Positions 2,089 through 22,560 are shown, counted from the stretch's first letter. The stretch is DNA of 64,000 nt from Candidatus Yanofskybacteria bacterium RIFCSPLOWO2_01_FULL_42_49 (GCA_001795615.1 MGKI01000014.1:5380-69379), one strand, 5' to 3'. Notes: a model not told the origin generated them from the sequence alone. Program-made: numbers and translations.

Positions 2089-3423
2089 TTAAAACATCCA
2101 TCTTTTCTTCTCCCACCGCTGTCCCGCAAACAAAAGTAATATCTTTCTTGTAACAATAGTGGCTGTAAACAAACTCACCAATACCCCTATCCCCAAAGTA
2201 AGCGCAAAACCCTTCACCATTGAAGTGGTAAACATATACAAAACAAGTGCGCCTATCAGAGTTGTAACATGGCTGTCTCGAACGGACAACCAAGCGCGTT
2301 TGAAACCTTCCTCCATGGACTGAGTAAGCGTTTTGCCAGCTTTCAGTTCTTCTCTCATACGGGCAAAAATAAGAACATTGGCATCAACGGCCATGCCCAG
2401 TGAAAGTATAAAACCAGCAATACCGGCCAGCGTTAATGTAACTGGTATCAGTTTATAAAACGCTAAGACAATGAGAACATAAACAACAAGCGCCGCAACA
2501 GAGACTACCCCTGGCAGACGGTAGAAAAGAATCATAAACAACGCAACGGCAATAAGACCGTAGACGCCGGCAACCAGACTTTTGACAAGGGATTCTTGGC
2601 CCAAAGATGCCCCGATTGTCTGTTGAGATATTAATTTAATCGGTACCGGCAAAGCGCCAGAGTTTAAACGAGTAACCAGCAACTTTGCTTCTTGAGGAGT
2701 AAACTTTCCACTTATAACAGCGCTACCGTCCGGAATCTCGGTTTGCACAACCGGTATGCTGATAGGCATACCGTCAAGATATATGGCAACCAACTTCCCG
2801 ATATTCCTTCGTGTTATTTCAGAGAACAGTTCCGCCCCCTCGCCGGTCAACTGTAAACTAACCTGCGGAATGTTGGTTTGGGGATCAAAAACCAACTGCG
2901 CTCTTTCAAGGTGTCTCCCGTTTAGACCGGTAGCTAAAAACGGTTCTTCACTCAGCCGTTCGCCTCTTGATTGCGCATCTAGTATGTCTCTGGTGCCGTC
3001 CGTTTCTTCTTTAAACTCAAGAAATGGCGTTTCGCCAATCAATTGAATAGCCTGATTGACATCGCTTATGCCCGCCAGTTCAACTATCAGACGATCACTT
3101 CCGCTCACTTGCACCACCGGTTCGGAAACACCAAAAAAGTTGACTCTTCTTTCCACCACATCTCTGACGCCCTGCATAGCATCCGCTGCGTTAAGATCGC
3201 CAACTTGATTTAAGTCGGCTTCATATACCAAGTGCGTACCACCGAGCAAATCCAGACCGAGACGAAACGGAGGAAGTTTCCAGTTTCTAGTTTCCAGTTT
3301 CCAGTTTAAAAAACCCGCGGTTTTTTCCACGCCTTGCGGGTAGACAAAGACCAACAAAAAAAGAGAAGCAACAATCAGAGTTATTAGAAAATATGAATTT
3401 TTCACTAAAGAGTAATTAAACAT
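2089..3423 (-). CDS. secD: protein translocase subunit SecD
   Basis: 444 aa with an N-terminal TM segment, a large periplasmic domain and C-terminal 6-TM SSD-type domain; adjacent to secF. Confidence 0.85.
   Translation of the reverse strand: MFNYSLVKNSYFLITLIVASLFLLVFVYPQGVEKTAGFLNWKLETRNWKLPPFRLGLDLLGGTHLVYEADLNQVGDLNAADAMQGVRDVVERRVNFFGVSEPVVQVSGSDRLIVELAGISDVNQAIQLIGETPFLEFKEETDGTRDILDAQSRGERLSEEPFLATGLNGRHLERAQLVFDPQTNIPQVSLQLTGEGAELFSEITRRNIGKLVAIYLDGMPISIPVVQTEIPDGSAVISGKFTPQEAKLLVTRLNSGALPVPIKLISQQTIGASLGQESLVKSLVAGVYGLIAVALFMILFYRLPGVVSVAALVVYVLIVLAFYKLIPVTLTLAGIAGFILSLGMAVDANVLIFARMREELKAGKTLTQSMEEGFKRAWLSVRDSHVTTLIGALVLYMFTTSMVKGFALTLGIGVLVSLFTATIVTRKILLLFAGQRWEKKRWMF
3281..3312. 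repeat. heptamer tandem repeat (AGTTTCC/AGTTTCT) inside secD
   Basis: tttccagtttctagtttccagtttccagttt encodes NWKLETRNWKLP in the SecD periplasmic domain. Confidence 0.55.
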
Positions 3424-3521: not shown

Positions 3522-4388
3522 TTACTTCTTGATATCGAATACGGGGGTGACACTACCGCCACTGACGACAAAAGTGCATCCACCCTTCAGACAAACATCT
3601 TTTTGCATCTTGATTGCCTCAAGGGAAACAAACTGTTCGGTGTTCAAACCCATCTCTCTGCGATAAGCATTGTCCGATACAGCCCGCTGCCTCTCAGCCG
3701 CTTCACGCTCTTTCTCTGCGGCAAGACGCTGAACTTCGGTTTTCTGAAGTTGTTCTTGCCGAGCCGTTTCAACCCTCTGTTCCTTAATTTCATTTGGCGG
3801 GTTGGCTCGGCCGATTGTGATATCGATGAGCTCGACTGGAAGCTTGATCCGTGCGAATTCCGCTCGCATTTCAACCTCAACCTGTTCATCGATTTGTTCA
3901 ATTGTTGACTTACCGCCGGATTCGGGAGTGGTATCACTAACCATCTCGCTCATCCCGTAGTTCTTGACAGCGCGACGGACGGCACGCTCCCATGGCCTGA
4001 AGACATTGTTGGAATACCACGCCGGTGCCGAATAACTCTCGTTCCAAGGGATATCGTCAACACCAAACTCGACGGCAAGACGAACCGGATCAGTGACCCG
4101 AACACGCATCGCCGCGTTGAAGTCCAGTGGCACGTTATCCTTGGAAAACATGTCATCGATGACCATCGTGAACTGAATCGGCTTGATATCAACATATCGT
4201 AACTCCGTCGACAGCGCAAACCATTCTCGACCGGTCTGGACCGATTGTTGTCTGACGCCACCGTCTCCAAAGAACCATGGTTTTTTGACGACCACGGCAA
4301 CCTGCCCCTCATTGGGTGTTGCCGCGTGACATCCTGTGATAATAACGGCAGCGATTGCCAAGGTTGTAATTTGTGCAACTCTCTTCAT
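3522..4388 (-). CDS. SPFH/Band-7 family lipoprotein
   Basis: The start is set at ATG rc 4386-4388, preceded by AAGGAGG. The lipoprotein signal is MKRVAQITTLAIAAVIITGC. An SPFH-like core is followed by a charged E/R/Q-rich coiled-coil tail. The gene is clearly more GC-rich (about 55-58%) than its neighbours. Confidence 0.6.
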   Translation of the reverse strand: MKRVAQITTLAIAAVIITGCHAATPNEGQVAVVVKKPWFFGDGGVRQQSVQTGREWFALSTELRYVDIKPIQFTMVIDDMFSKDNVPLDFNAAMRVRVTDPVRLAVEFGVDDIPWNESYSAPAWYSNNVFRPWERAVRRAVKNYGMSEMVSDTTPESGGKSTIEQIDEQVEVEMRAEFARIKLPVELIDITIGRANPPNEIKEQRVETARQEQLQKTEVQRLAAEKEREAAERQRAVSDNAYRREMGLNTEQFVSLEAIKMQKDVCLKGGCTFVVSGGSVTPVFDIKK

Positions 4389-4564
4389 TAGTTCCTCCTT
4401 GCTACTTTTGGATCTTCCGACCCTAAATAGTAGCCACTTTTTTGAGTTGACAACGAACGCGAGTACTATATTAACATATTTATAAAATAATGCAAGAAGA
4501 GGGATGAGGCCATACAAAAATAGGCCTCATTTGAGGACAATGCACAATAGTAGTGGTGGAGCGA

Positions 4565-6010
4565 CTATTCCAATTTCTCTCTGCCCTTATGAGGTTTTTG
4601 TTGTTCTAACCACTCCTTGACCGCCATCGTCGCCCTGACATCATCTTCGTTATACTTCAGAATTTTTTTCAAAATGACATCGGATTTGTTTTCCAACCAC
4701 TCGTTATACCAAACCACTGACTCGGCCCCGCCCGCTTCGGGGTCATTCCATTTATAACCAACATACCCCGCAACATCTTTCAAGCTGTAGAAATAAAGGG
4801 GTAAAATTACGGACTCAACGGTTTGGTTATAAAGGTCTATCGTATTTTCTCTAAACTTTGAAACCAACGCCGACGGGGCGCCGTATTTCAATGCGAATTG
4901 GTCAAAAACAACTTTCTCGAGAAACGCGTAGTGATAAATTACGAAATCGTTCAAGTCCGCCAGAAAATCTAAAAAACTTCTCCAAATTTCCGACTCTTCG
5001 TCTTTATTGTTCGCAAAAAAGTGTCTGTATTCAACAGATCCCGACTTTGTATCTTTGATCAACACTCCGAGCAGATAATGAATATCTCTTGTCGGATCGC
5101 TCTCAATGTCAAAATAAATTTCATAACGGACTTTGGGGAAGTTACCCTTTTTCAATATCAACGGCTCTTGAGAAATCAGAGACTTGGCTTGATTATTAAA
5201 TCTCACCAACTTATCAAACGGCCAATCTTCGAGTTTTGCTTGAAGCTCATTTACATCAGCGTCTGCCACTTGGCCCACCGTCCTTATGCCGATGTCATAA
5301 AGCCGCCTCTGGTCGGATTGGCTTATCCTAAATATCAGCGACACATCATTGCATTCCCTCGCTCCCTCAACACACAATGAATACCATGGAGTTTTCTTAC
5401 ATCCAGACTTCAAAAACGGCGCAGGTTTTTCTCCCTCAAGAATTTTCTCTATCTGCTCTCTGGTAACATGAAACTGGCTGACAAAATCATCAACAAGAAA
5501 TGAACGGGTATTGCCGTCAGGATCAATAACGAAAGCTTCTTTTGGCCTTACCCCTTGCAACCTTTCCAGTATCAAGCTATAGAAAACGAGTTGGAATTTG
5601 TACTGATCGCCGATATCAAGGGAACTCTGAACATCATAAACGACATAGTGCCAGTCACCCAAATCCGACTTTCCCGCTTGAGCTTCAAGCAAATCCGGCA
5701 TCCCCACCCAATTCTCATGCATCAAAACGCCGTGATATATGTTTTTCCCTTGCTTCATTAATTCCAGTGTCGCCAGAAACGCTTCTTCAAGGTCGCGAAA
5801 CGACTCGGGTTTTATCTGTTCAAACTCTTTAAATTTTCTGATTGATTCGCTGGTATTGGCCAACTTGCCCTTGTACAGAAGCTCCAGTATCGGCGGAATG
5901 TGCTTTTTCTTTTTCGCATCAGCGTAAATGTCGTACCAAATCCAATGCGGACACTGGAAAAATTTGTAGAAATGTTCAGGGGTAAGAAATTTTTTATTCG
6001 CTTCGCTCAT
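4565..6010 (-). CDS. RecB-family nuclease, TM0106-like (N-terminal Cas4-like PD-(D/E)XK domain fused to C-terminal RNase-H-like exonuclease domain)
   Basis: The N-terminus (FFQCPHWIWYD ... YVVYDVQSSLDIGDQYKFQLVFYSLILERLQG) is paralogous to the adjacent Cas4-like gene. The C-terminus contains an RNase-H-fold exonuclease-like block (YFDIESDP...YHYAFLEK...YNEDDV). Confidence 0.6.
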   Translation of the reverse strand: MSEANKKFLTPEHFYKFFQCPHWIWYDIYADAKKKKHIPPILELLYKGKLANTSESIRKFKEFEQIKPESFRDLEEAFLATLELMKQGKNIYHGVLMHENWVGMPDLLEAQAGKSDLGDWHYVVYDVQSSLDIGDQYKFQLVFYSLILERLQGVRPKEAFVIDPDGNTRSFLVDDFVSQFHVTREQIEKILEGEKPAPFLKSGCKKTPWYSLCVEGARECNDVSLIFRISQSDQRRLYDIGIRTVGQVADADVNELQAKLEDWPFDKLVRFNNQAKSLISQEPLILKKGNFPKVRYEIYFDIESDPTRDIHYLLGVLIKDTKSGSVEYRHFFANNKDEESEIWRSFLDFLADLNDFVIYHYAFLEKVVFDQFALKYGAPSALVSKFRENTIDLYNQTVESVILPLYFYSLKDVAGYVGYKWNDPEAGGAESVVWYNEWLENKSDVILKKILKYNEDDVRATMAVKEWLEQQKPHKGREKLE

Positions 6011-6098
6011 TGATTATAATCCTAATCTACGAATTTATCCGAATGCTCCGAATAACAATTTGGGGCATTTGGATGCCATTTGCGGATTTGGATTATGG

Positions 6099-6827
6099 TC
6101 AAACATTAAAATCCTCCGGCATGTATTGCTTTACCATACTAACATAATGGCAATGATCGCAATGCTTCTGCGCATTGCCGCTTGCCGAAGGAGGTTCATC
6201 TTGCCTTGCCAGCTCAACTGCCGCTTCAAAAGTCGGACCAACCCATTCAGTATTAATCTTGACCGGTCTTACTTCTTCCGTAAACTTCAAGACATTACCA
6301 AAACCAGTCTCCCCTTCTTTGACAACTTTATAAAAAACAAAGAAGGCTTCGGGATAAGTTTCATAACCCTTCTGTTTCAATATATAATTATAAACATCCA
6401 TTTGTTTCTGATAATCATCGTAAATAGTTATCTCTTTTGCGCCGGAAGATTTATAATCAATCACCCCCAAAGAACCGTCTTTAAACTCCAGAACATCATC
6501 AACTGCGCCGTACAATACGGCATTTAAAGCTTCGTCATGATAAACAACCCCTTTAAAATTATTCCGCCATTCAGAAAGTTCCTCGCCGTTAAATAACTTT
6601 GCATCCTTAATTCCGTGACTTTTCAGAATCGGAGGCAAAGTGCCTTTCTCTCGATATTTGTCGAATTCTTTTTTAACCAAATAGTCCACGGCGATAGAAA
6701 GCGTGAACGGATATCCAGGCGGCCTTTTCACTTTGTGATGCAAATCCAGCCAAAAACAGCGTGGACATTCCTGAAACAATTTCAACCCGCTTCGGGAAAT
6801 TTTGAGAGTATTCGAAAATTTTAGCAT
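6099..6827 (-). CDS. PD-(D/E)XK nuclease, Cas4/RecB-like (DUF83-type) with Cys cluster
   Basis: N-terminal FQECPRCFWLD and C-terminal CDHCHY cysteines; core GVIDYKSSGAKE...YDDYQKQMDVYNYIL matches PD-(D/E)XK motifs II/III and Q-h-x-x-Y. Confidence 0.6.
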   Translation of the reverse strand: MLKFSNTLKISRSGLKLFQECPRCFWLDLHHKVKRPPGYPFTLSIAVDYLVKKEFDKYREKGTLPPILKSHGIKDAKLFNGEELSEWRNNFKGVVYHDEALNAVLYGAVDDVLEFKDGSLGVIDYKSSGAKEITIYDDYQKQMDVYNYILKQKGYETYPEAFFVFYKVVKEGETGFGNVLKFTEEVRPVKINTEWVGPTFEAAVELARQDEPPSASGNAQKHCDHCHYVSMVKQYMPEDFNV

Positions 6828-6850
6828 TGAAGTTATTGTACACTAGTTTT

Positions 6851-6888
6851 TATAAAACTTAAAAGCCGCTTGAAAAAATCAAGCGGCT
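6851..6888 (-). terminator. intrinsic terminator after the JAB gene
   Basis: agccgcttga (6864-6873) pairs with tcaagcggct (6879-6888) around a 5-nt loop. A U-rich tail follows on the minus strand. Confidence 0.5.
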
Positions 6889-7462
6889 ATGTATAACCTA
6901 AAGCCCTGTTCAGCGACTTGAGCGCAGCGGGTGCTTGAATAAAAAAACATTCTTCCTTCAAATCTCCATTTCCCTCTTTTGTGACCCGGAGTATGTTTAT
7001 GTGGAATTTATATTTACCAAGAGACCCTCGGATACCGCCCTCGGCAGTACCTTGCCATAAAATTCTATCCTTGTTGATAGACGAAATTTTTATAACTACC
7101 GACAACGGACAACCGCCCCGAAGCATGTCTTTCATGTCCGTACTGCTCAAGGTCGGTTCCCTCTTGTGAGATCCCCACTCGGGATGCGAATGAAAGTCGC
7201 CGATAACCGGAAAAATGGCCGGATATTTTTTGAAAAATTCTTTCATGTTTCTCTCGCTTAACTTACTTTGTTCTATTTCTTTATTACGGCGTTTTTTGGC
7301 AAGTTGCACGGCCACAGCGCTGGTTATAATAAAATTATTTCTGGTTCTGCTAGGCTTTCTGCCAAAAATATAGCCAAAACATTCTCTCTTAAATGTTTCC
7401 ACGGATGAAAGTACCATTGTAAAAAACGGCTCTTCCTCTATGTAGACAGTCGGCGGATCCAC
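6887..7462 (-). CDS. JAB/MPN (JAMM) domain metalloprotease-like protein
   Basis: JAMM motif E...HSHP...SSTD (GDFHSHPEWGSHKREPTLSSTD). A 10-bp-stem hairpin plus T-run directly after the stop. Confidence 0.6.
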   Translation of the reverse strand: MDPPTVYIEEEPFFTMVLSSVETFKRECFGYIFGRKPSRTRNNFIITSAVAVQLAKKRRNKEIEQSKLSERNMKEFFKKYPAIFPVIGDFHSHPEWGSHKREPTLSSTDMKDMLRGGCPLSVVIKISSINKDRILWQGTAEGGIRGSLGKYKFHINILRVTKEGNGDLKEECFFIQAPAALKSLNRALGYT

Positions 7463-7547: not shown

Positions 7548-9056
7548 TTAAACACCATAAATACCCGAGTACTTGGTTTGAAGATATTCTTGAAAATAAC
7601 TGACGGATAACTCTTGGCCGGTAACGCGTTTTACTAATTCAGCCGCGCTATAGAGTTTACCCTTGCTGTGGACATTGGTCCTAAGCCAACCCAGAAGAAG
7701 CTTAAAAAATTCTTCAGGGAGTATTTTTTCCGGTAAATCCGCCATGGCTGCGTTGCAAAACTGAGCCGCATAAAGGTTTCCCAGCGCATAGGTCGGGAAA
7801 TAGCCGAATGATCCCTCCGACCAGTGAATATCCTGAAGCACTCCGTTAGCGTCTTTATCGACTTCTATGCCAAAATAATCAGCCACTTTTTGATTCCATG
7901 CCCGGGGCAAATCATTAACGGTTAAATGTCCTCCGATCAGGTCCTTCTCAATTTCAAAACGAAAGATGACATGCAGATTATAAGTAACCTCATCGGCGTC
8001 AACTCTTATTAAAGACGGCCTGACGCAGTTAATCGCCTTGTAAAAACTCTCAAGTGAAACACCGGCTAAAACTTCGCTGAAGTACAACTTTAGCTCCGGG
8101 AAAAAATATTCCCAAAATAAGTGGGACCGTCCGATATAATTCTCCCATAGCCGAGAATTAAATTCATGAATGCCTAGTGATACCGCTTCACCTCTGGGAG
8201 TGCCGAAATATTCAACCGGGAGCCCTTGCTCATACATGCCGTGGCCAGATTCATGAATAGCGCTCATAAGACACTGCTCAACAAAATCATCTTTTTTATA
8301 TCGTACGGTGATGCGGACATCGGAAGGATGTAACTCCTGGCAAAACGGGTGAAGGCTTGTCCCCATATGACCGGCATCCAGATCAAATCCAATTCGAGTC
8401 AAAACCATTTTGGCGAACTTCTTCTGCTTTCCGATATCCCAAGGTCCTTTCAAAAATGATCGGTCGGTCTTAACTGAAGAGTTTGCTATCTTAGAAACAA
8501 ACGGCACAAGGAATTTTTTTAATTCGGTAAATGTTTTTTCTGCTTTGTCGCTGGTCAATCCCGGTTCAAAATCATCAAGCAAAACATCGTACCACGAATC
8601 ACTAGGATTAACTAACTCGGCTTCTTGTCTCTTAAGTTCAACGATTTTTTCCAAATGAGGCGCAAATAAACCAAAATCTGAGTTTTTTCTCGCTCTTGCC
8701 CAAAAGTCGTGAGCACGAGCGCAAGTTAAGCTAAGCTCGTCTACAAATTCGTTAGGCAGTTTTTTTGACTTAACGAAATCGCACAAAGTTTCACGGACTA
8801 TACAGGATTCATCTTCATTAAGTTCTCCCCGATCCATAGCCTCTTGTGCTTGCATTAACACCGTTTCAAATTCAGATGATGTAAAATTCCTGTGATACAG
8901 TCCCGAGACATGAGCCATCAGTTGGGCCCTGGCTTCGTAACCCTTAGCAGGAACATTAACCTGCTGGTCCCAGCTCAAAAGAGCATTCATGGAACCAAGA
9001 TGCTGTAAACCTAAAAGTTTATCCCTTAACACTGCCACTGCTAGATTCATGGTCAA
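7548..9056 (-). CDS. M32 family carboxypeptidase (carboxypeptidase Taq-like)
   Basis: 502 aa with the HESGHGMYE zinc motif (HEXXH) and overall M32 architecture. Confidence 0.85.
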   Translation of the reverse strand: MTMNLAVAVLRDKLLGLQHLGSMNALLSWDQQVNVPAKGYEARAQLMAHVSGLYHRNFTSSEFETVLMQAQEAMDRGELNEDESCIVRETLCDFVKSKKLPNEFVDELSLTCARAHDFWARARKNSDFGLFAPHLEKIVELKRQEAELVNPSDSWYDVLLDDFEPGLTSDKAEKTFTELKKFLVPFVSKIANSSVKTDRSFLKGPWDIGKQKKFAKMVLTRIGFDLDAGHMGTSLHPFCQELHPSDVRITVRYKKDDFVEQCLMSAIHESGHGMYEQGLPVEYFGTPRGEAVSLGIHEFNSRLWENYIGRSHLFWEYFFPELKLYFSEVLAGVSLESFYKAINCVRPSLIRVDADEVTYNLHVIFRFEIEKDLIGGHLTVNDLPRAWNQKVADYFGIEVDKDANGVLQDIHWSEGSFGYFPTYALGNLYAAQFCNAAMADLPEKILPEEFFKLLLGWLRTNVHSKGKLYSAAELVKRVTGQELSVSYFQEYLQTKYSGIYGV

Positions 9057-9129
9057 GTCTTCCTGTCAATGAACTAGTTAGGATTAAAATACAGTAAAGA
9101 CTTAATGTGGTCAATAAAAAATATGCGGT

Positions 9130-10086
9130 TTATATTATTGAGTATACAATTTTGCCGCCCTCAAAAATGTGAAGTGAGTCGCTTTCTTCGGAAACAGTGA
9201 AAACTGTAGTATTTTTGAAAATATATGATGCCGATATCGCCGATAAGTGACGCAGGTGGACTTTTGCCTTAAAGCCAAATTGTTCGGAGAGATCGTTAAA
9301 TTTGCCGGGATTGATTTTGTTGGCCACTTCTTTAGGTCTTAATCCCTCAATCATTATCCCCGAATGGATAATATCCCCGCCTCTGTCGACTAAAATCGCG
9401 CCGTCAAAATTAATGGTCGTCTCAATATCGTGTTTGTGGCCATGGTAATGTTTTAATAAATTTTGGTGATGCTTTTTATAAATATCCTGCTTTGCGTCGG
9501 GCATATCGGTATATTCATTCCACCTACTCTGCCAGCCAAGAATAATAAAAAGGCCAAAATTCTTTTTGCGGTTCATCAAGCGCAGGATTATCTCTGCTGT
9601 TTTTATCCTCAATTCTTCGGGAAATTTTATTCTTGATTTTTCAAATTTAATTTTCAGTTCGTCTAAAATTTTCTGAATATTTAATTTCCTGGCCGGTTTG
9701 ACCTTGTTCACGTATTTAGCCAAAAGAAGAGAACTATACCTGAAGTTACCGCCCGGCCCGACATTAAAAACAATTTTGCATCCTATTTTTTTGCATGCTT
9801 CGGCTTCAGGAACATTTTTTTCGCCTTTCCGGTTGCCTCCTTTGGCAAAAATATCCGGTTTGATTCTTAGGATTTCTTTGCTAACGCTGACATCTTTGGG
9901 ATTTTTTGGGTGACTGGTAACAACAACCTTGTCAACCCACTTTATGGATCTCAAAATTTCTTCTCTTTCTTTCTGGGGCATCAAAATGTGGGTCTTTTTT
10001 TTCTTAAGCCAATGGTCGTTGTTAAGAATAACCACCAGTTCATCGCCAAGCTTCTTTGCCTCTCTGAGCATCTTAATGTGCCCCAT
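9130..10086 (-). CDS. fusion protein: cytidylyltransferase-like (HxGH) nucleotidyltransferase + calcineurin-like metallophosphoesterase
   Basis: N-terminal ...GGFDPLHMGHIKML...KPDIFAKGG resembles RfaE-domain-II/TagD nucleotidyltransferases. The C-terminal half has the phosphoesterase motif HGHKHD. Coordinates are given from the first ATG. The nucleotide-binding GGFDPLH motif lies upstream of that ATG, so the true start is probably non-canonical at about 10141-10152 (see findings). Confidence 0.55.
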   Translation of the reverse strand: MGHIKMLREAKKLGDELVVILNNDHWLKKKKTHILMPQKEREEILRSIKWVDKVVVTSHPKNPKDVSVSKEILRIKPDIFAKGGNRKGEKNVPEAEACKKIGCKIVFNVGPGGNFRYSSLLLAKYVNKVKPARKLNIQKILDELKIKFEKSRIKFPEELRIKTAEIILRLMNRKKNFGLFIILGWQSRWNEYTDMPDAKQDIYKKHHQNLLKHYHGHKHDIETTINFDGAILVDRGGDIIHSGIMIEGLRPKEVANKINPGKFNDLSEQFGFKAKVHLRHLSAISASYIFKNTTVFTVSEESDSLHIFEGGKIVYSII

Positions 10087-10132: not shown

Positions 10133-10777
10133 CTATTTTTTATAAATTTCAGATGAAATTCTTTCTACCGCTTCAACTGGGTTGGCCGACTTAATAACGG
10201 GTCGGCCAATGACAAGAAGATCGGCCCCCAATTTAACTGCTTCCAAGGGAGTCACAGTACGGCCTTGGTCATCTTTTATATTGTACCATTTTGGGCGAAT
10301 CCCCGGAACAACTTTTAATCCCCTAAAATTCTTAAGATAGTTGAGTTCATGCGCAGAGCAGACCACGCCATCGAGTTTAGCTTTTTTAATATCCACGATT
10401 AACTTCAAAAATTCCTTTTTACTTACGGTATTTTTGGAAGTAAGGATGGTCACTCCAAGTATTTTGGCTCGACGAGCAGCCTTTTTAGACGCTTCCATCA
10501 TTTCCACTCCTCCGACAGCGTGAACAGTTATTAAGTCGGCCCCTGCTTTTTCCAAACGAGCAACGGAACGGGCCACCGTTGACGGAATGTCGTGCAGTTT
10601 AGCGTCAGCAAAAACCTTGCCGAATTTTTTGAGCTTTTGAATTATTTCTCCGCCTTCGACAGAAAATAGCAAGTCGTTGACCTTAAATCCCCAAACATTA
10701 TTTTTTAATTTTGCCGCAATTTTCAGAGCTTCTTTAACAGACACCCCATCAAGAGAAAGAATGATCTTACGCTCCAT
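10133..10777 (-). CDS. pyrF: orotidine 5'-phosphate decarboxylase
   Basis: [11 protein letters not shown]...KLHDIPSTV...VIGRP motifs typical of PyrF. ATG at rc 10775-10777 is preferred over the GTG at 10807, which would overlap secA. Confidence 0.8.
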
Positions 10778-13706
10778 GACACTTTTTATACTTTTTTCCG
10801 CTTCCACAGGGGCAGGGATCGTTCCTGCCTACGCTACCAAATTCATTATTCATGATTCCTGATTCATTTCTGTGCACAGGTTCATTTATAACGGACTGAT
10901 GTTTGTGAGGTCTGATGTCGGGCTTGCCCTCCATGGCTTCAGCGACGGAGGGTCTTTGTTCTTCCATCTTTGTCGGTCGCGGTTGCTGTATTAACGAAAC
11001 TTTAAAAATAATGTTAGCAACTTGAGCTTCAATGGCTGAGGTCAGCTGTTGGAACATTTTTTGCCCTTCAATTTTATATTCAACCAGAGGATCTCTTTGG
11101 CCGTAAGCGCGTAAGCGAACCGAATCGCGGAGATACTCCATCGCTTCAATGTGATCCATCCACAGTTCGTCTATCGTTCTTAAGAGGACCAACTTCTCCA
11201 ATTTTCTCATGTCTTCTTCGCCTACTTCTTTTTCTTTTTCCTCATATTTTTGATAAACGAATTCCAACACTTCTTTTTTTATCTCTTCCTTTTCTTTTGA
11301 TTCGTAATTCGTAATTCGTAATTCGTAATTCGTTAGAGCTTTAACACTTTCTTCAATTTCTTTAATATTCCACTCATAATTAGAGCCTTGGGTATGAAAA
11401 TCAACAATCTGGCTTATTGTATTCTCAATAAAGTTTTGAATTTTGAGTTTTGAATTTTGAGTTTGTTTAGAGTTTAGAGTTTCGAGTTTAGAGTTTACGA
11501 TTTCTCGCCTTAGCCGATAAATCGTCTCGCGGTGCTTATTCATCACATCATCGTACTCAAGCACATATTTTCTTATGTCAAAATTGTGGCCCTCTATCTT
11601 TGACTGCGCCTGTTCAATCGCGCGAGAAATAAATCTGTTCTCAACTACGTCATCATCACCGACACCAAGTGTCTCCATAATATTATGAAGTCGGTCGCCG
11701 CCAAACACCCTGATAACATCATCTTGAGTAGAAACGAAGAACTGCGATGAACCGGGATCGCCTTGCCGTCCGGCGCGGCCACGAAGCTGGTCATCTATCC
11801 GTCTTGCTTCGTGCCGTTCTGTGCCAATAACATGGAGACCTCCGACTTCGCGAACCTTGTTCGCTTCGTCGGGCAAAGCAGGATTGCCGCCAAGAATAAT
11901 ATCAACTCCGCGGCCGGCCATATTAGTTGCGACCGTTACCGCGCCAAGCCGTCCGGCTTGAGCGTGCAGTTCCGCTTCTTTTTCATGCTGTTTGGCGTTT
12001 AACACATTGTGAGGAATGCCGTCTCTCGAAAGCATCGCTGACAATAATTCGTTCTTTTCTATGGATACCGTACCAACAAGCACCGGCTGGCCTTTCTCGT
12101 GTTTTTCCTTTACTTCTCTGACTACCGCCCGAAATTTCCCCTCTTCATTTTTGTAAATCCTGTCTGGCATATCTTTTCTTACCAGCGGTTTATTCGTCGG
12201 CACTTCAACAACATCAAGACCATATACTTTGTGAAATTCTTCAGCAGATGTTCGGGCGGTACCGGTCATGCCGGCGAGTTTTTTGTATAAACGAAAATAG
12301 TTCTGGAATGTTATCGTGGCGAGAGTTCTGGATTCTTTTTGTATTTTCACTCCTTCTTTCGCCTCAACCGCCTGATGAAGCCCCTCGGACCAGCGCCGAC
12401 CCGGCATTAACCGTCCTGTAAATTCGTCGACAATTATTACTTCCTTTCCGCCGGAGGCGGATCCGCCTCCGGCGGAAACCACATAGTCGCGGTCTTTTTT
12501 AAATAAGACCTGCGCTTTAAGCGCCTGCTCAAGGTGATGGACATGCCTTACTCCTCCTTCGTTGTAAATGTTGCTTATACCCAGCGCTTTTTCCACTTTT
12601 TCTATCCCTTTCTCGGTAATAGACACCGCTTTTAATTTTTCGTCTAGATTATAGTCTTCGTTCTCAACAAGCCGCGGAGCGATACGGGCAAATGTTTCAT
12701 ATAATTTACCGGAGTCCTCGTCAGGCGCAGAAATTATAAGAGGAGTTCTTGCTTCGTCAATCAAAATACTGTCGACTTCATCAACTATTGCAAAGTTATG
12801 CATTTGTTGCAGGTCTTTAGTATTTTGAATTTCGGATTTTGAATTTGGAATTTGTTTAGGATTTAGGATTTGGGATTTAGGATTTTCGCTTCGCAATTGA
12901 ACCATTTGCGAAGCGTCATAGGCCATATTGTCGCGCAAATAGTCGAACCCCAACTCGTTGTTCGTACAGTATGTAATATCAGCCGCATAGGCCTCCTTGC
13001 GACCAACCGGCCTCAAAAACTCGTGAACAACCTTAAAACTTCCTAGGGTGTCTCTTGTCTCATCAAGTTTAGAGTTTTGCTTGCCCGCCGAAGCTTTAGC
13101 GAAGGCGGGGTCATTTGGTTTTTTGTTTTCATTGGAAATTGAAAATTGGAAATTGGAAATTCCACTTGCTTCTTTGTTTGTCTCGCTATGGCTTGGATCG
13201 TATAGATACGAGCTATCGTGATTGATACATCCCACAGTAAGTCCGAGCAAGTGGTAAATCTGTCCCATCCAGGCCGTATCGCGGCGGGATAGGTAGTCAT
13301 TCACGGTTACGATGTGAACTCCTTGTCCGGCAAGCGCGTTCAAATATGCCGGCAATGTGGCAACTAAAGTTTTCCCTTCACCAGTTTTCATTTCGGCAAT
13401 CTTGCCCTGATGCAAAACAATGCCGCCCATCAACTGAACGTCAAAATGCCGCTGGTTAAGCGTCCGTTTGGCCGCTTCGCGAACCGCCGCAAATGCTTCG
13501 GGCAGAATATCGTCCAACGACTCAATGGCTCCGTCATTGAGTCGTTCATTGAGTCGTTGACGAAATTCTCCCGTTTTCGCCTTTAACTCCTCGTCTGACA
13601 GTTTCTCAAATTCCGGCTCAAGCGAATTTATCCGGTCTATGACCGGCTGAAGCGACTTAATATACCTAGCATTAGCGTCCCCGAATACTTTACCTAGTAT
13701 TGACAT
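10767..13706 (-). CDS. secA: preprotein translocase ATPase SecA (expanded, 979 aa)
   Basis: Canonical SecA N-terminus, DEAD-like motor, and C-terminal zinc finger [14 protein letters not shown]. It contains several low-complexity and GC-palindrome insertions (see findings). Confidence 0.95.
11283..11508. repeat. tandem heptanucleotide repeats inside secA (AATTCGT x5; GAATTTTGAGTTTT/TTTAGAG-type array)
   Basis: Direct reading: ttcgtaattcgtaattcgtaattcgtaattcgt, and gaattttgagttttgaattttgagtttgtttagagtttagagtttcgagtttagagttta. These encode [15 protein letters not shown] and [22 protein letters not shown]. Confidence 0.65.
12447..12476. repeat. perfect 30-bp palindrome (tccgccggaggcggatccgcctccggcgga) inside secA, in frame
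   Basis: Verified identical to its own reverse complement. It encodes [10 protein letters not shown], inserted where E. coli SecA has KDG. A near-copy lies between genes at 22459-22486. Confidence 0.7.
12822..12893. repeat. tandem heptamer-type repeats inside secA (GAATTTG/GGATTTA array)
   Basis: tttgaatttcggattttgaatttggaatttgtttaggatttaggatttgggatttaggatttt encodes [23 protein letters not shown]. Confidence 0.6.
13055..13170. repeat. composite in-frame element in secA: AT-rich heptamer arm, GC-rich hairpin, AT-rich heptamer arm
   Basis: The first arm is agtttagagttttg. The GC-rich hairpin is cccgccgaagctttagcgaaggcgggg (13081-13108). The second arm is ggaaattgaaaattggaaattggaaattcc. Together they encode [34 protein letters not shown]. 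Confidence 0.6.
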
Positions 13707-22380: not shown

Positions 22381-22560
22381 AATCGCGCCCTTAGCGTTCT
22401 AATCTCTAAATCCTAATTTCTAATCTCTAATAATCTCAAAATCCTAATTTTCAAAATTTCCGCCAGAGGCGGATCTGCCTCCGGCATGACAAAATGTTTT
22501 GGATTTTGATATTTGATATTGTTTAGAGTTTAGGGTTTAGAATTTAGGATTTTATCTTTA
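22381..22560. repeat. MITE-like intergenic element: AT-rich heptamer-repeat arms in inverted orientation flanking a GC-rich near-palindrome
   Basis: The arms are taatctctaaatcctaatttctaatctcta... and ...gtttagagtttagggtttagaatttaggatttt. They flank tccgccagaggcggatctgcctccggca (22459-22486), a 2-mismatch copy of the perfect palindrome inside secA. Confidence 0.5.

Follow-up and report, generated by a model that had tools for sequence, protein, structure and literature searches.

Neighbouring genes for a JAMM-motif protein and two Cas4-like nucleases in a Candidatus Yanofskybacteria genome: a probable case of lineage-specific synteny

Genes for solo Cas4-like nucleases are over-represented, and for the most part vertically inherited, in genomes from the Candidate Phyla Radiation (CPR) and from DPANN archaea that have no CRISPR (Hudaiberdiev et al. 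2017, PMC5704561). A second group, COG2251/PF13482, is the predicted 3′-5′ exonuclease family F.13 of a survey of RNase-H-like proteins, with an architecture that combines DUF83 and the RNase-H-like PF13482, frequently alongside tandem AAA domains (Majorek et al. 2014, PMC3985635). The end-resection machines AddAB, AdnAB and RecBCD also use RecB-type nuclease domains, of which one carries an Fe-S cluster. The JAMM-motif fold is shared by Cap3 of the cyclic oligonucleotide-based antiphage signalling system (CBASS) and by the small, single-domain JAMM1 desampylase-type deconjugases of archaea. The subject of this analysis is a trio of genes that places such proteins side by side in a 64,000-nucleotide (nt) stretch of DNA from Candidatus Yanofskybacteria bacterium RIFCSPLOWO2_01_FULL_42_49 (GCA_001795615.1 MGKI01000014.1:5380-69379). 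This whole stretch is referred to as the window.

All three open reading frames (ORFs) lie on the minus strand. In the direction of transcription they encode a JAMM-motif JAB protein of 191 amino acids (aa; 6887-7462), a PD-(D/E)XK nuclease of 242 aa (6099-6827) and a TM0106-family protein of 481 aa (4565-6010). The gap between the JAB and 242-aa nuclease genes is 59 nt and that between the 242-aa nuclease and TM0106 genes is 88 nt, with no overlaps. An NCBI entry from Candidatus Yanofskybacteria matches the 242-aa protein at 100% identity. An initial annotation of the window had placed the three ORFs at these coordinates and quoted peptide motifs from them, all of which were found in the translations. 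It had further proposed that the trio may be a defence or DNA-end-processing module. The analysis favours another reading, to which a probability of roughly 0.7 is given: these are three genes that function independently and happen to be neighbours within one lineage of Parcubacteria, namely Candidatus Yanofskybacteria and its close relatives. The trio is a lineage-specific synteny, and both its families and the phenomenon of the solo nuclease were already known.

Distribution and synteny of the three genes

GTDB was scanned with the 242-aa nuclease at one genome per species, and the 79 loci obtained were rechecked by tblastn and by hidden Markov models (HMMs) built from the homolog sets. A Yanofskybacteria-like clade accounts for 33 of these loci, at an identity of at least 57%. 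TM0106 lies downstream of the nuclease gene, and is co-oriented with it, in all 28 clade loci that have enough flanking sequence. JAB is present in only 4 of the 33 clade species. At the 46 distant loci (36-48% identity), TM0106, JAB and any conserved neighbour are all absent within 10 kb. The hosts of these distant homologs are other CPR lineages, DPANN archaea, Omnitrophota, Spirochaetota, Chloroflexi, Planctomycetes and others. An EndoIII-like gene stands upstream of the nuclease in just four of them.

Metagenomes were scanned with the JAB alignment, giving 71 loci. Where JAB is at least 41% identical, the nuclease gene follows immediately downstream (21 of 21 loci), and where the identity is 39% or less, both nucleases are missing (50 of 50 loci). 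In a tree built for the 242-aa nuclease, loci with and without JAB are intermixed all through; JAB has therefore been lost or gained repeatedly while the nucleases stayed in place. Synteny of all three genes in relatives, on which the proposed module depends, was not borne out, as JAB is confined to a few clade species and the distant nuclease and JAB loci lack the partner genes.

Two side observations concern the JAB loci. In 18 of the 50 distant loci (among L100-L117, L121 and L144; JAB 21-39% identity) JAB lies directly upstream of nusA, and some of these have rplS and a pseudouridine synthase gene upstream and clpP downstream, a different, housekeeping context. At locus L090, one of the 21 with a closer JAB, the gene after JAB (8616-9413, minus strand) encodes a member of a different PD-(D/E)XK subfamily (37% identity) on the opposite strand, with TM0106 and secDF still downstream. 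This suggests that the nuclease gene was replaced at the same site.

Outside the clade, the test anchored on TM0106 used plasmid records, a partial substitute for a genome scan. TM0106-family proteins are encoded by 77 plasmids, mostly of Proteobacteria, with an identity of about 25% along the whole query. In the four plasmid contexts inspected, the homologs are helicase fusions of about 1130 aa, and none of the four has a neighbour of the 242-aa or JAB family. A PD-(D/E)XK gene beside TM0106 on an Aminobacter plasmid was considered as a homolog of the 242-aa nuclease and rejected, having no HMM match at E ≤1. The initial annotation's supposition that TM0106 belongs with the other two genes is thus contradicted: it is present in every one of the 28 clade loci, it is conserved to the same degree as SecD and it is free of these partners in the proteobacterial plasmid contexts inspected.

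The plasmid contexts have company of their own. WYL regulators, SbcCD-like genes or a DEAD-box helicase are found beside the TM0106 fusion in three of the four. On the Aminobacter and Sphingobium plasmids (L153 and L156), fusions of about 1100 aa are flanked by WYL regulators and by SbcCD-like exonuclease/ATPase pairs, and the Sphingobium context additionally has HEPN and DUF3883 genes. The TM0106-helicase fusion with WYL and SbcCD-like genes is a recurrent plasmid module.

Within the clade, secA is kept upstream in 21 loci and secD is kept downstream of TM0106 in 20. The gap between the 242-aa nuclease and TM0106 genes has a median of 619 nt and is at most 200 nt in 11 of 28 loci, and from TM0106 to secD the median is 319 nt, with at most 200 nt in 9 of 20. 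On these figures, the adjacency of the nuclease and TM0106 genes is no tighter than the background collinearity of TM0106 and secD. Among 40 relatives (clade and metagenome loci), the distance from one nuclease gene to the other exceeds 500 nt in 27, and the spacers range from 0 to 2.5 kb. The genes inserted between them are non-conserved and include those for PaaX/Cas2-like proteins, small secreted His/Pro-rich proteins and others. A fourth conserved gene at this position was considered and rejected, since the inserts are heterogeneous and their largest cluster, the PaaX/Cas2-like one, comprises only seven loci. This PaaX_M/Cas2-like protein (PF20803 E 4.6e-23; PF09827 E 1e-5) is encoded between the nucleases in L002 (3996-4598), L010, L015, L024, L085, L093 and L096, and is not found in the window.

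The trio is not a conserved multi-gene system, as there is no adjacency beyond closely related, collinear genomes in the loci examined. Nor is it a single, tightly spaced transcription unit: a terminator follows JAB, the median spacing of the two nuclease genes is about 0.6-0.7 kb and other genes have been inserted between them.

The mean identity of clade proteins to those of the window is 69% for the 242-aa nuclease, 69% for TM0106, 68% for SecD, 63% for SecA, 59% for SecF, 49% for the M32 carboxypeptidase and 48% for JAB. With an identity at the level of SecD, and found at one and the same position in the clade loci that were examined, the nucleases behave as core, vertically inherited genes, unlike patchy and fast-evolving defence genes. 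This degree of conservation also suggests core DNA-end processing, which each nuclease most likely carries out on its own, judging from sequence. The two enzymes would be core, vertically inherited components of DNA maintenance in the clade, with a predicted role in repair and a predicted enzymatic polarity. Their genes sit within a conserved collinear block that runs from secA to a cytidylyltransferase/diadenylate cyclase (DAC)-like gene, then to M32 and JAB where these are present, the 242-aa nuclease, TM0106, secD and secF, with variable genes on either side of TM0106 in some genomes.

The three proteins and their closest relatives

The 242-aa protein matches PDDEXK_1 (PF12705) with 40.6 bits against a cutoff of 22 (E 3.8e-10). 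Residues D110/D111, D124-Y-K126 and Q142-x3-Y146 are invariant in 21 sequences, so its description as a Cas4-like PD-(D/E)XK nuclease holds. Four cysteines (C21, C24, C223 and C226) form a conserved CxxC...CxxC (2+2) pattern, which differs from the arrangement of one N-terminal and three C-terminal cysteines in Cas4 and AddB. The score against the Cas4 equivalog TIGR00372 is 21.5 bits, where the cutoff is 65. There are no cas genes, such as cas1 or cas2, near the trio, which is surrounded by housekeeping genes. As first annotated, no CRISPR array accompanies the trio: Tandem Repeats Finder and a direct-repeat search found no CRISPR-like array across the 64 kb, only 7-nt coding repeats. The 242-aa protein is not a Cas4 sensu stricto, on account of the sub-cutoff score, the missing cas context and the 2+2 cysteine pattern.

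A search of PDB sequences gave no significant match for the 242-aa nuclease. Its AlphaFold2 (AF2) model has a predicted local distance difference test (pLDDT) score of 82.6, and the best fold matches are the nuclease domains of AdnAB (both AdnA and AdnB), MGME1 and lambda exonuclease, followed by ACE1 (an Argonaute-associated, Cas4-family protein), Cas4 SSO0001, Exo5 and Dna2. The closest structural matches of the modelled protein are thus nucleases that process ends or flaps. Unlike AddAB, AdnAB and RecBCD, neither nuclease gene here contains a helicase or has one beside it, and the pairing of the two nucleases is a lineage-specific synteny only. The nearer parallel is with the solo Cas4 and Cas4-like PF12705 nucleases of CPR and DPANN genomes (PMC5704561). 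Like these, the 242-aa protein is stand-alone and has a PD-(D/E)XK core with QxxxY and a putative cysteine metal cluster, and its family is likewise vertically inherited and common in small-genome CPR and DPANN without CRISPR. The family comprises 479 homolog clusters, with 1342 representative clusters in a 50% library. The enzyme is predicted to be a solo Cas4/RecB-type metal-cluster nuclease that would act on DNA ends or 5′ flaps, as do Cas4, AdnAB, Exo5 and MGME1.

An origin in mobile elements was considered and rejected, homologs of the three proteins being scarce in the viral collections searched. Scans of IMG/VR returned the 242-aa nuclease at two loci and JAB and TM0106 at none, and INPHARED phage records held no match for the 242-aa nuclease. 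Among the PHROGs, one family of unknown function matches the 242-aa nuclease and none matches JAB or TM0106. One of the IMG/VR loci, L152 (UViG 3300038424_000692, 4030-4710), encodes a 40%-identical homolog on a contig classed as viral. It adjoins a gene for a 775-aa N6-adenine-methylase/restriction-modification (R-M)-like protein and IS200/IS605 tnpA/tnpB-like genes.

The 481-aa protein belongs, over its full length, to the TM0106 family. TIGR03491 is matched with 316.8 bits against the curated cutoff of 97.45 (E 2.6e-94), with residues 12-468 aligned to positions 4-462 of the 462-position model. The fusion of a TM0106-type nuclease to an RNase-H-like exonuclease, as originally described, was recovered here. 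RNase_H_2 (PF13482) covers residues 298-468 (4607-5119, minus strand; E 5.1e-31), and the exonuclease residues D301/E303 (in FDIESDP), E365 and Y453-x3-D457 of the DEDDy type are invariant in the homolog alignment. The N-terminal Cas4/RecB-like PD-(D/E)XK domain occupies residues 1 to about 225 (5336-6010, minus strand), of which residues 90-214 are matched by Cas4 models. These matches are sub-threshold (PF01930 22.2 against 22.7; TIGR00372 32.1 bits against a cutoff of 65). Four cysteines in a 1+3 pattern that is a signature of an Fe-S cluster (C20 and C204/C213/C220) and the QxxxY motif are invariant.

The nuclease motif of this N-terminal domain reads PD106...YD126-V-Q128, with a glutamine at the position of the lysine of (D/E)xK (residues 126-128). 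Most orthologs in the clade share the window's glutamine, a few having K or R, while homologs on proteobacterial plasmids carry D-T-K in the same motif. The remaining catalytic and Cys residues are conserved.

In its DUF83/Cas4-like domain, its PF13482 exonuclease and its lack of a CRISPR association, the 481-aa protein resembles the rest of the TM0106 family. It differs in the lysine-to-glutamine change of the Yanofskybacteria-like clade and in being a short form, which lacks the SF1 helicase (tandem AAA) extension of the roughly 1130-aa proteobacterial plasmid members. At least 625 homolog clusters were found, with 66-86% identity among those listed. No significant match to the TM0106 protein was returned from PDB sequences, and a literature search under the name TM0106 found nothing relevant. 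The protein would combine an Fe-S PD-(D/E)XK domain with a DEDDy 3′-5′ exonuclease, and may trim DNA ends in recombination or repair.

The two nucleases had been called clear paralogs. They are homologous, as judged from the family models and the motif register that they share: an N-terminal Cys, D...D-x-K/Q and QxxxY occur in the same order, and the same region of the Cas4 models is matched. The word "clear" was an overstatement. Pairwise BLASTP gives 24% identity (E 8e-5), and hhalign of the two family alignments, both low in diversity, gives E 0.015 at a probability of 3%. The two are distant homologs within one superfamily and did not arise by a recent duplication.

The 191-aa protein is a JAB protein with a JAMM motif, as annotated. 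It matches PF01398 with 28.7 bits against a cutoff of 22.5 (E 1.3e-6). E27, H91, H93 and D109 are invariant in 26 homologs, and S106 is conserved in at least 90%. The canonical spacing between HxH and SxxD in the JAMM motif is 7 residues, and that in the 191-aa protein is 12. The AF2 model (pLDDT 89.8) has an MPN fold that is nearest to Rpn11, Rpn8, CSN5, CSN6 and BRCC36. A profile of the family against the PDB agrees with these fold matches (BRCC36, E 2.4e-7) and reaches JAMM1 at E 0.36-0.43. JAB has 49 homolog clusters, far below the numbers of the two nucleases.

Immediately past the JAB stop codon there is a GC-rich hairpin of 10 bp (6888-6864), followed by a T-run, which together form an intrinsic-terminator-like element (6864-6888, minus strand). 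The annotated terminator of JAB is therefore present. Each of the 17 other distinct JAB-to-nuclease spacers that were examined also has a GC hairpin with a T-run, of differing sequence; this makes JAB a separate transcription unit.

Two described groups invite comparison with JAB. It shares the JAMM-motif fold with Cap3 of CBASS, which acts alongside the E1/E2 protein Cap2, and weak matches to PADLOC JAB models were obtained (best E 3.5e-7). No CD-NTase, Cap2 or effector is found among the ORFs neighbouring JAB, however. JAB is also monocistronic with its own terminator, and in sequence and structure it is nearer to the eukaryote-type MPN+ proteins Rpn11, CSN5 and BRCC36. Like the archaeal JAMM1 deconjugases, JAB is a small single-domain MPN+ protein with an intact E...HxH...S..D motif, but its sequence similarity to them is marginal, its HxH-SxxD spacer is longer and it has no ubiquitin-like or E1 gene beside it. 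JAB is an MPN+ protein that stands alone, and not a Cap3. It is predicted to be an accessory, fast-evolving and separately transcribed Zn-dependent JAMM isopeptidase or peptidase that would act on some protein substrate. In some species it may have been inserted or kept upstream of the nuclease gene; most would have lost it.

Surrounding genes in the window

The genes around the trio are all on the minus strand. Upstream of JAB are secA (10767-13706), pyrF (10133-10807), the cytidylyltransferase/DAC-like gene (9130-10086) and the M32 carboxypeptidase gene (7548-9056). Downstream of TM0106 are a gene for an SPFH/Band-7 protein (3522-4517), secD (2089-3423) and secF (1095-1997). No tRNA genes or Rfam families were detected at threshold across positions 1-64000.

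No counterpart of the SPFH gene, which lies between TM0106 and secD, was found in the 150 related loci searched, and the gene appears to be a recent insertion that is specific to the Yanofskybacteria genome examined. The cytidylyltransferase/DAC-like gene encodes a 318-aa protein with an N-terminal cytidylyltransferase-like domain and a C-terminal region with a weak, sub-threshold resemblance to DisA_N/diadenylate cyclase. It is kept upstream of the 242-aa nuclease in many clade loci. Arrays of repeats with a 7-nt period (units such as AGTTTAG and ATTCGTA) are found inside secA at 11300-11333, 11432-11497, 12816-12885 and 13131-13161, where they encode low-complexity SecA inserts, for example a stretch of 21 residues. 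Further arrays lie at 3275-3307, in secD, and at 22521-22552.

Alternative explanations and significance

Several observations weigh against the independence of the three genes. The order of nuclease and TM0106 is kept in all 28 clade loci, among them four in which secDF is no longer within 5.7-7.7 kb, and it survives repeated insertions around and between the genes; weak selection could thus be holding the two nucleases together. In the window, the 88-nt spacer between the two nuclease genes (6011-6098, minus strand) has no predicted terminator, and the two may be co-transcribed. Every JAB of at least 41% identity has its position directly upstream of the nuclease gene (25 of 25 loci).

It may be postulated that the two nucleases, without JAB, are a lineage-specific, helicase-less pair for end resection at double-strand breaks, analogous to the RecB-type domains of AddAB and AdnAB. 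The 242-aa enzyme would then be the canonical D-x-K nuclease, and TM0106 would supply the 3′-5′ exonuclease and an altered, D-x-Q Fe-S domain. Such a pair is considered unlikely. The constant order and orientation, retained even where the flanks have changed, speaks for it, as do the spacer without a terminator, the core-level conservation of both nucleases and the 12 of 40 loci in which the genes abut, overlap or lie at most 150 nt apart. The change from Lys to Gln in TM0106 is seen only in this clade, where the neighbour could supply a canonical nuclease, and it is the AdnAB domains to which the 242-aa model is closest. Linkage is absent outside the clade in both directions, however, and unrelated genes intervene in two-thirds of relatives. 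There is no evidence of interaction, and the adjacency of TM0106 and secD is equally conserved, so that collinearity alone explains the pattern. A more specific form of the proposal is more doubtful still: in a minimal, helicase-free resection pair of this clade, the Cas4-like domain of TM0106 would have turned into a DNA-binding or regulatory Fe-S module, with the 242-aa protein as the canonical nuclease, the DEDDy domain trimming 3′ ends and JAB uninvolved.

Two further explanations assign JAB a partner. One ties it functionally to the M32 carboxypeptidase upstream, as a two-peptidase processing pair, and not to the nucleases. The gene directly upstream of JAB is M32 in the window, in L006 and in 10 of the 22 metagenome loci that carry JAB; M32 is missing from the remaining JAB-bearing loci and from all loci of distant JAB homologs, and it is present without JAB in L007. 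A peptidase pair is thus very improbable. With M32 upstream in about half of the JAB-bearing loci, JAB is rather one optional element of the larger collinear block.

The other explanation, a novel anti-phage system in which a Cap3-like JAB regulates two Cas4-like nuclease effectors, is the least probable of those considered. PADLOC returned only weak single-domain matches (Cas4, Cas4b, DruK and JAB) for the three proteins and the SPFH neighbour, and no system. The matches to CBASS JAB models and to Cas4 models would fit a defence role, as would the constant position of the closer JAB homologs beside the nuclease. Distant members also occur in defence-like contexts, with the R-M gene at L152 and with WYL, HEPN and SbcCD-like genes at the plasmid TM0106-helicase fusions. 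Against this, 29 of the 33 clade species keep both nucleases without JAB, and a conserved terminator of its own follows JAB. The neighbours are secA, pyrF, M32, SPFH and secDF, with no E1/E2, CD-NTase, sensor or other defence gene among them. In conservation and in presence the nucleases resemble core genes and not those of defence, and distant JAB homologs adjoin nusA and rplS. The trio fails as a candidate for a new defence system and is not to be carried forward as one. The broader proposal of a joint defence or DNA-end-processing module falls as well, on both the distribution of the three genes and the presence of TM0106 regardless of the other two.

Three independently functioning genes in a conserved neighbourhood thus remain the preferred reading, and adjacency in one streamlined genome, or in collinear close relatives, is no evidence of a functional module. 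The lysine-to-glutamine change in the TM0106 motif is a minor peculiarity that can be tested. TM0106/COG2251 and the PD-(D/E)XK family with the CxxC...CxxC pattern, both of them uncharacterised nuclease families, behave as core genes in a CPR lineage with a minimal genome, and this makes them reasonable candidates for its DNA-repair toolkit.

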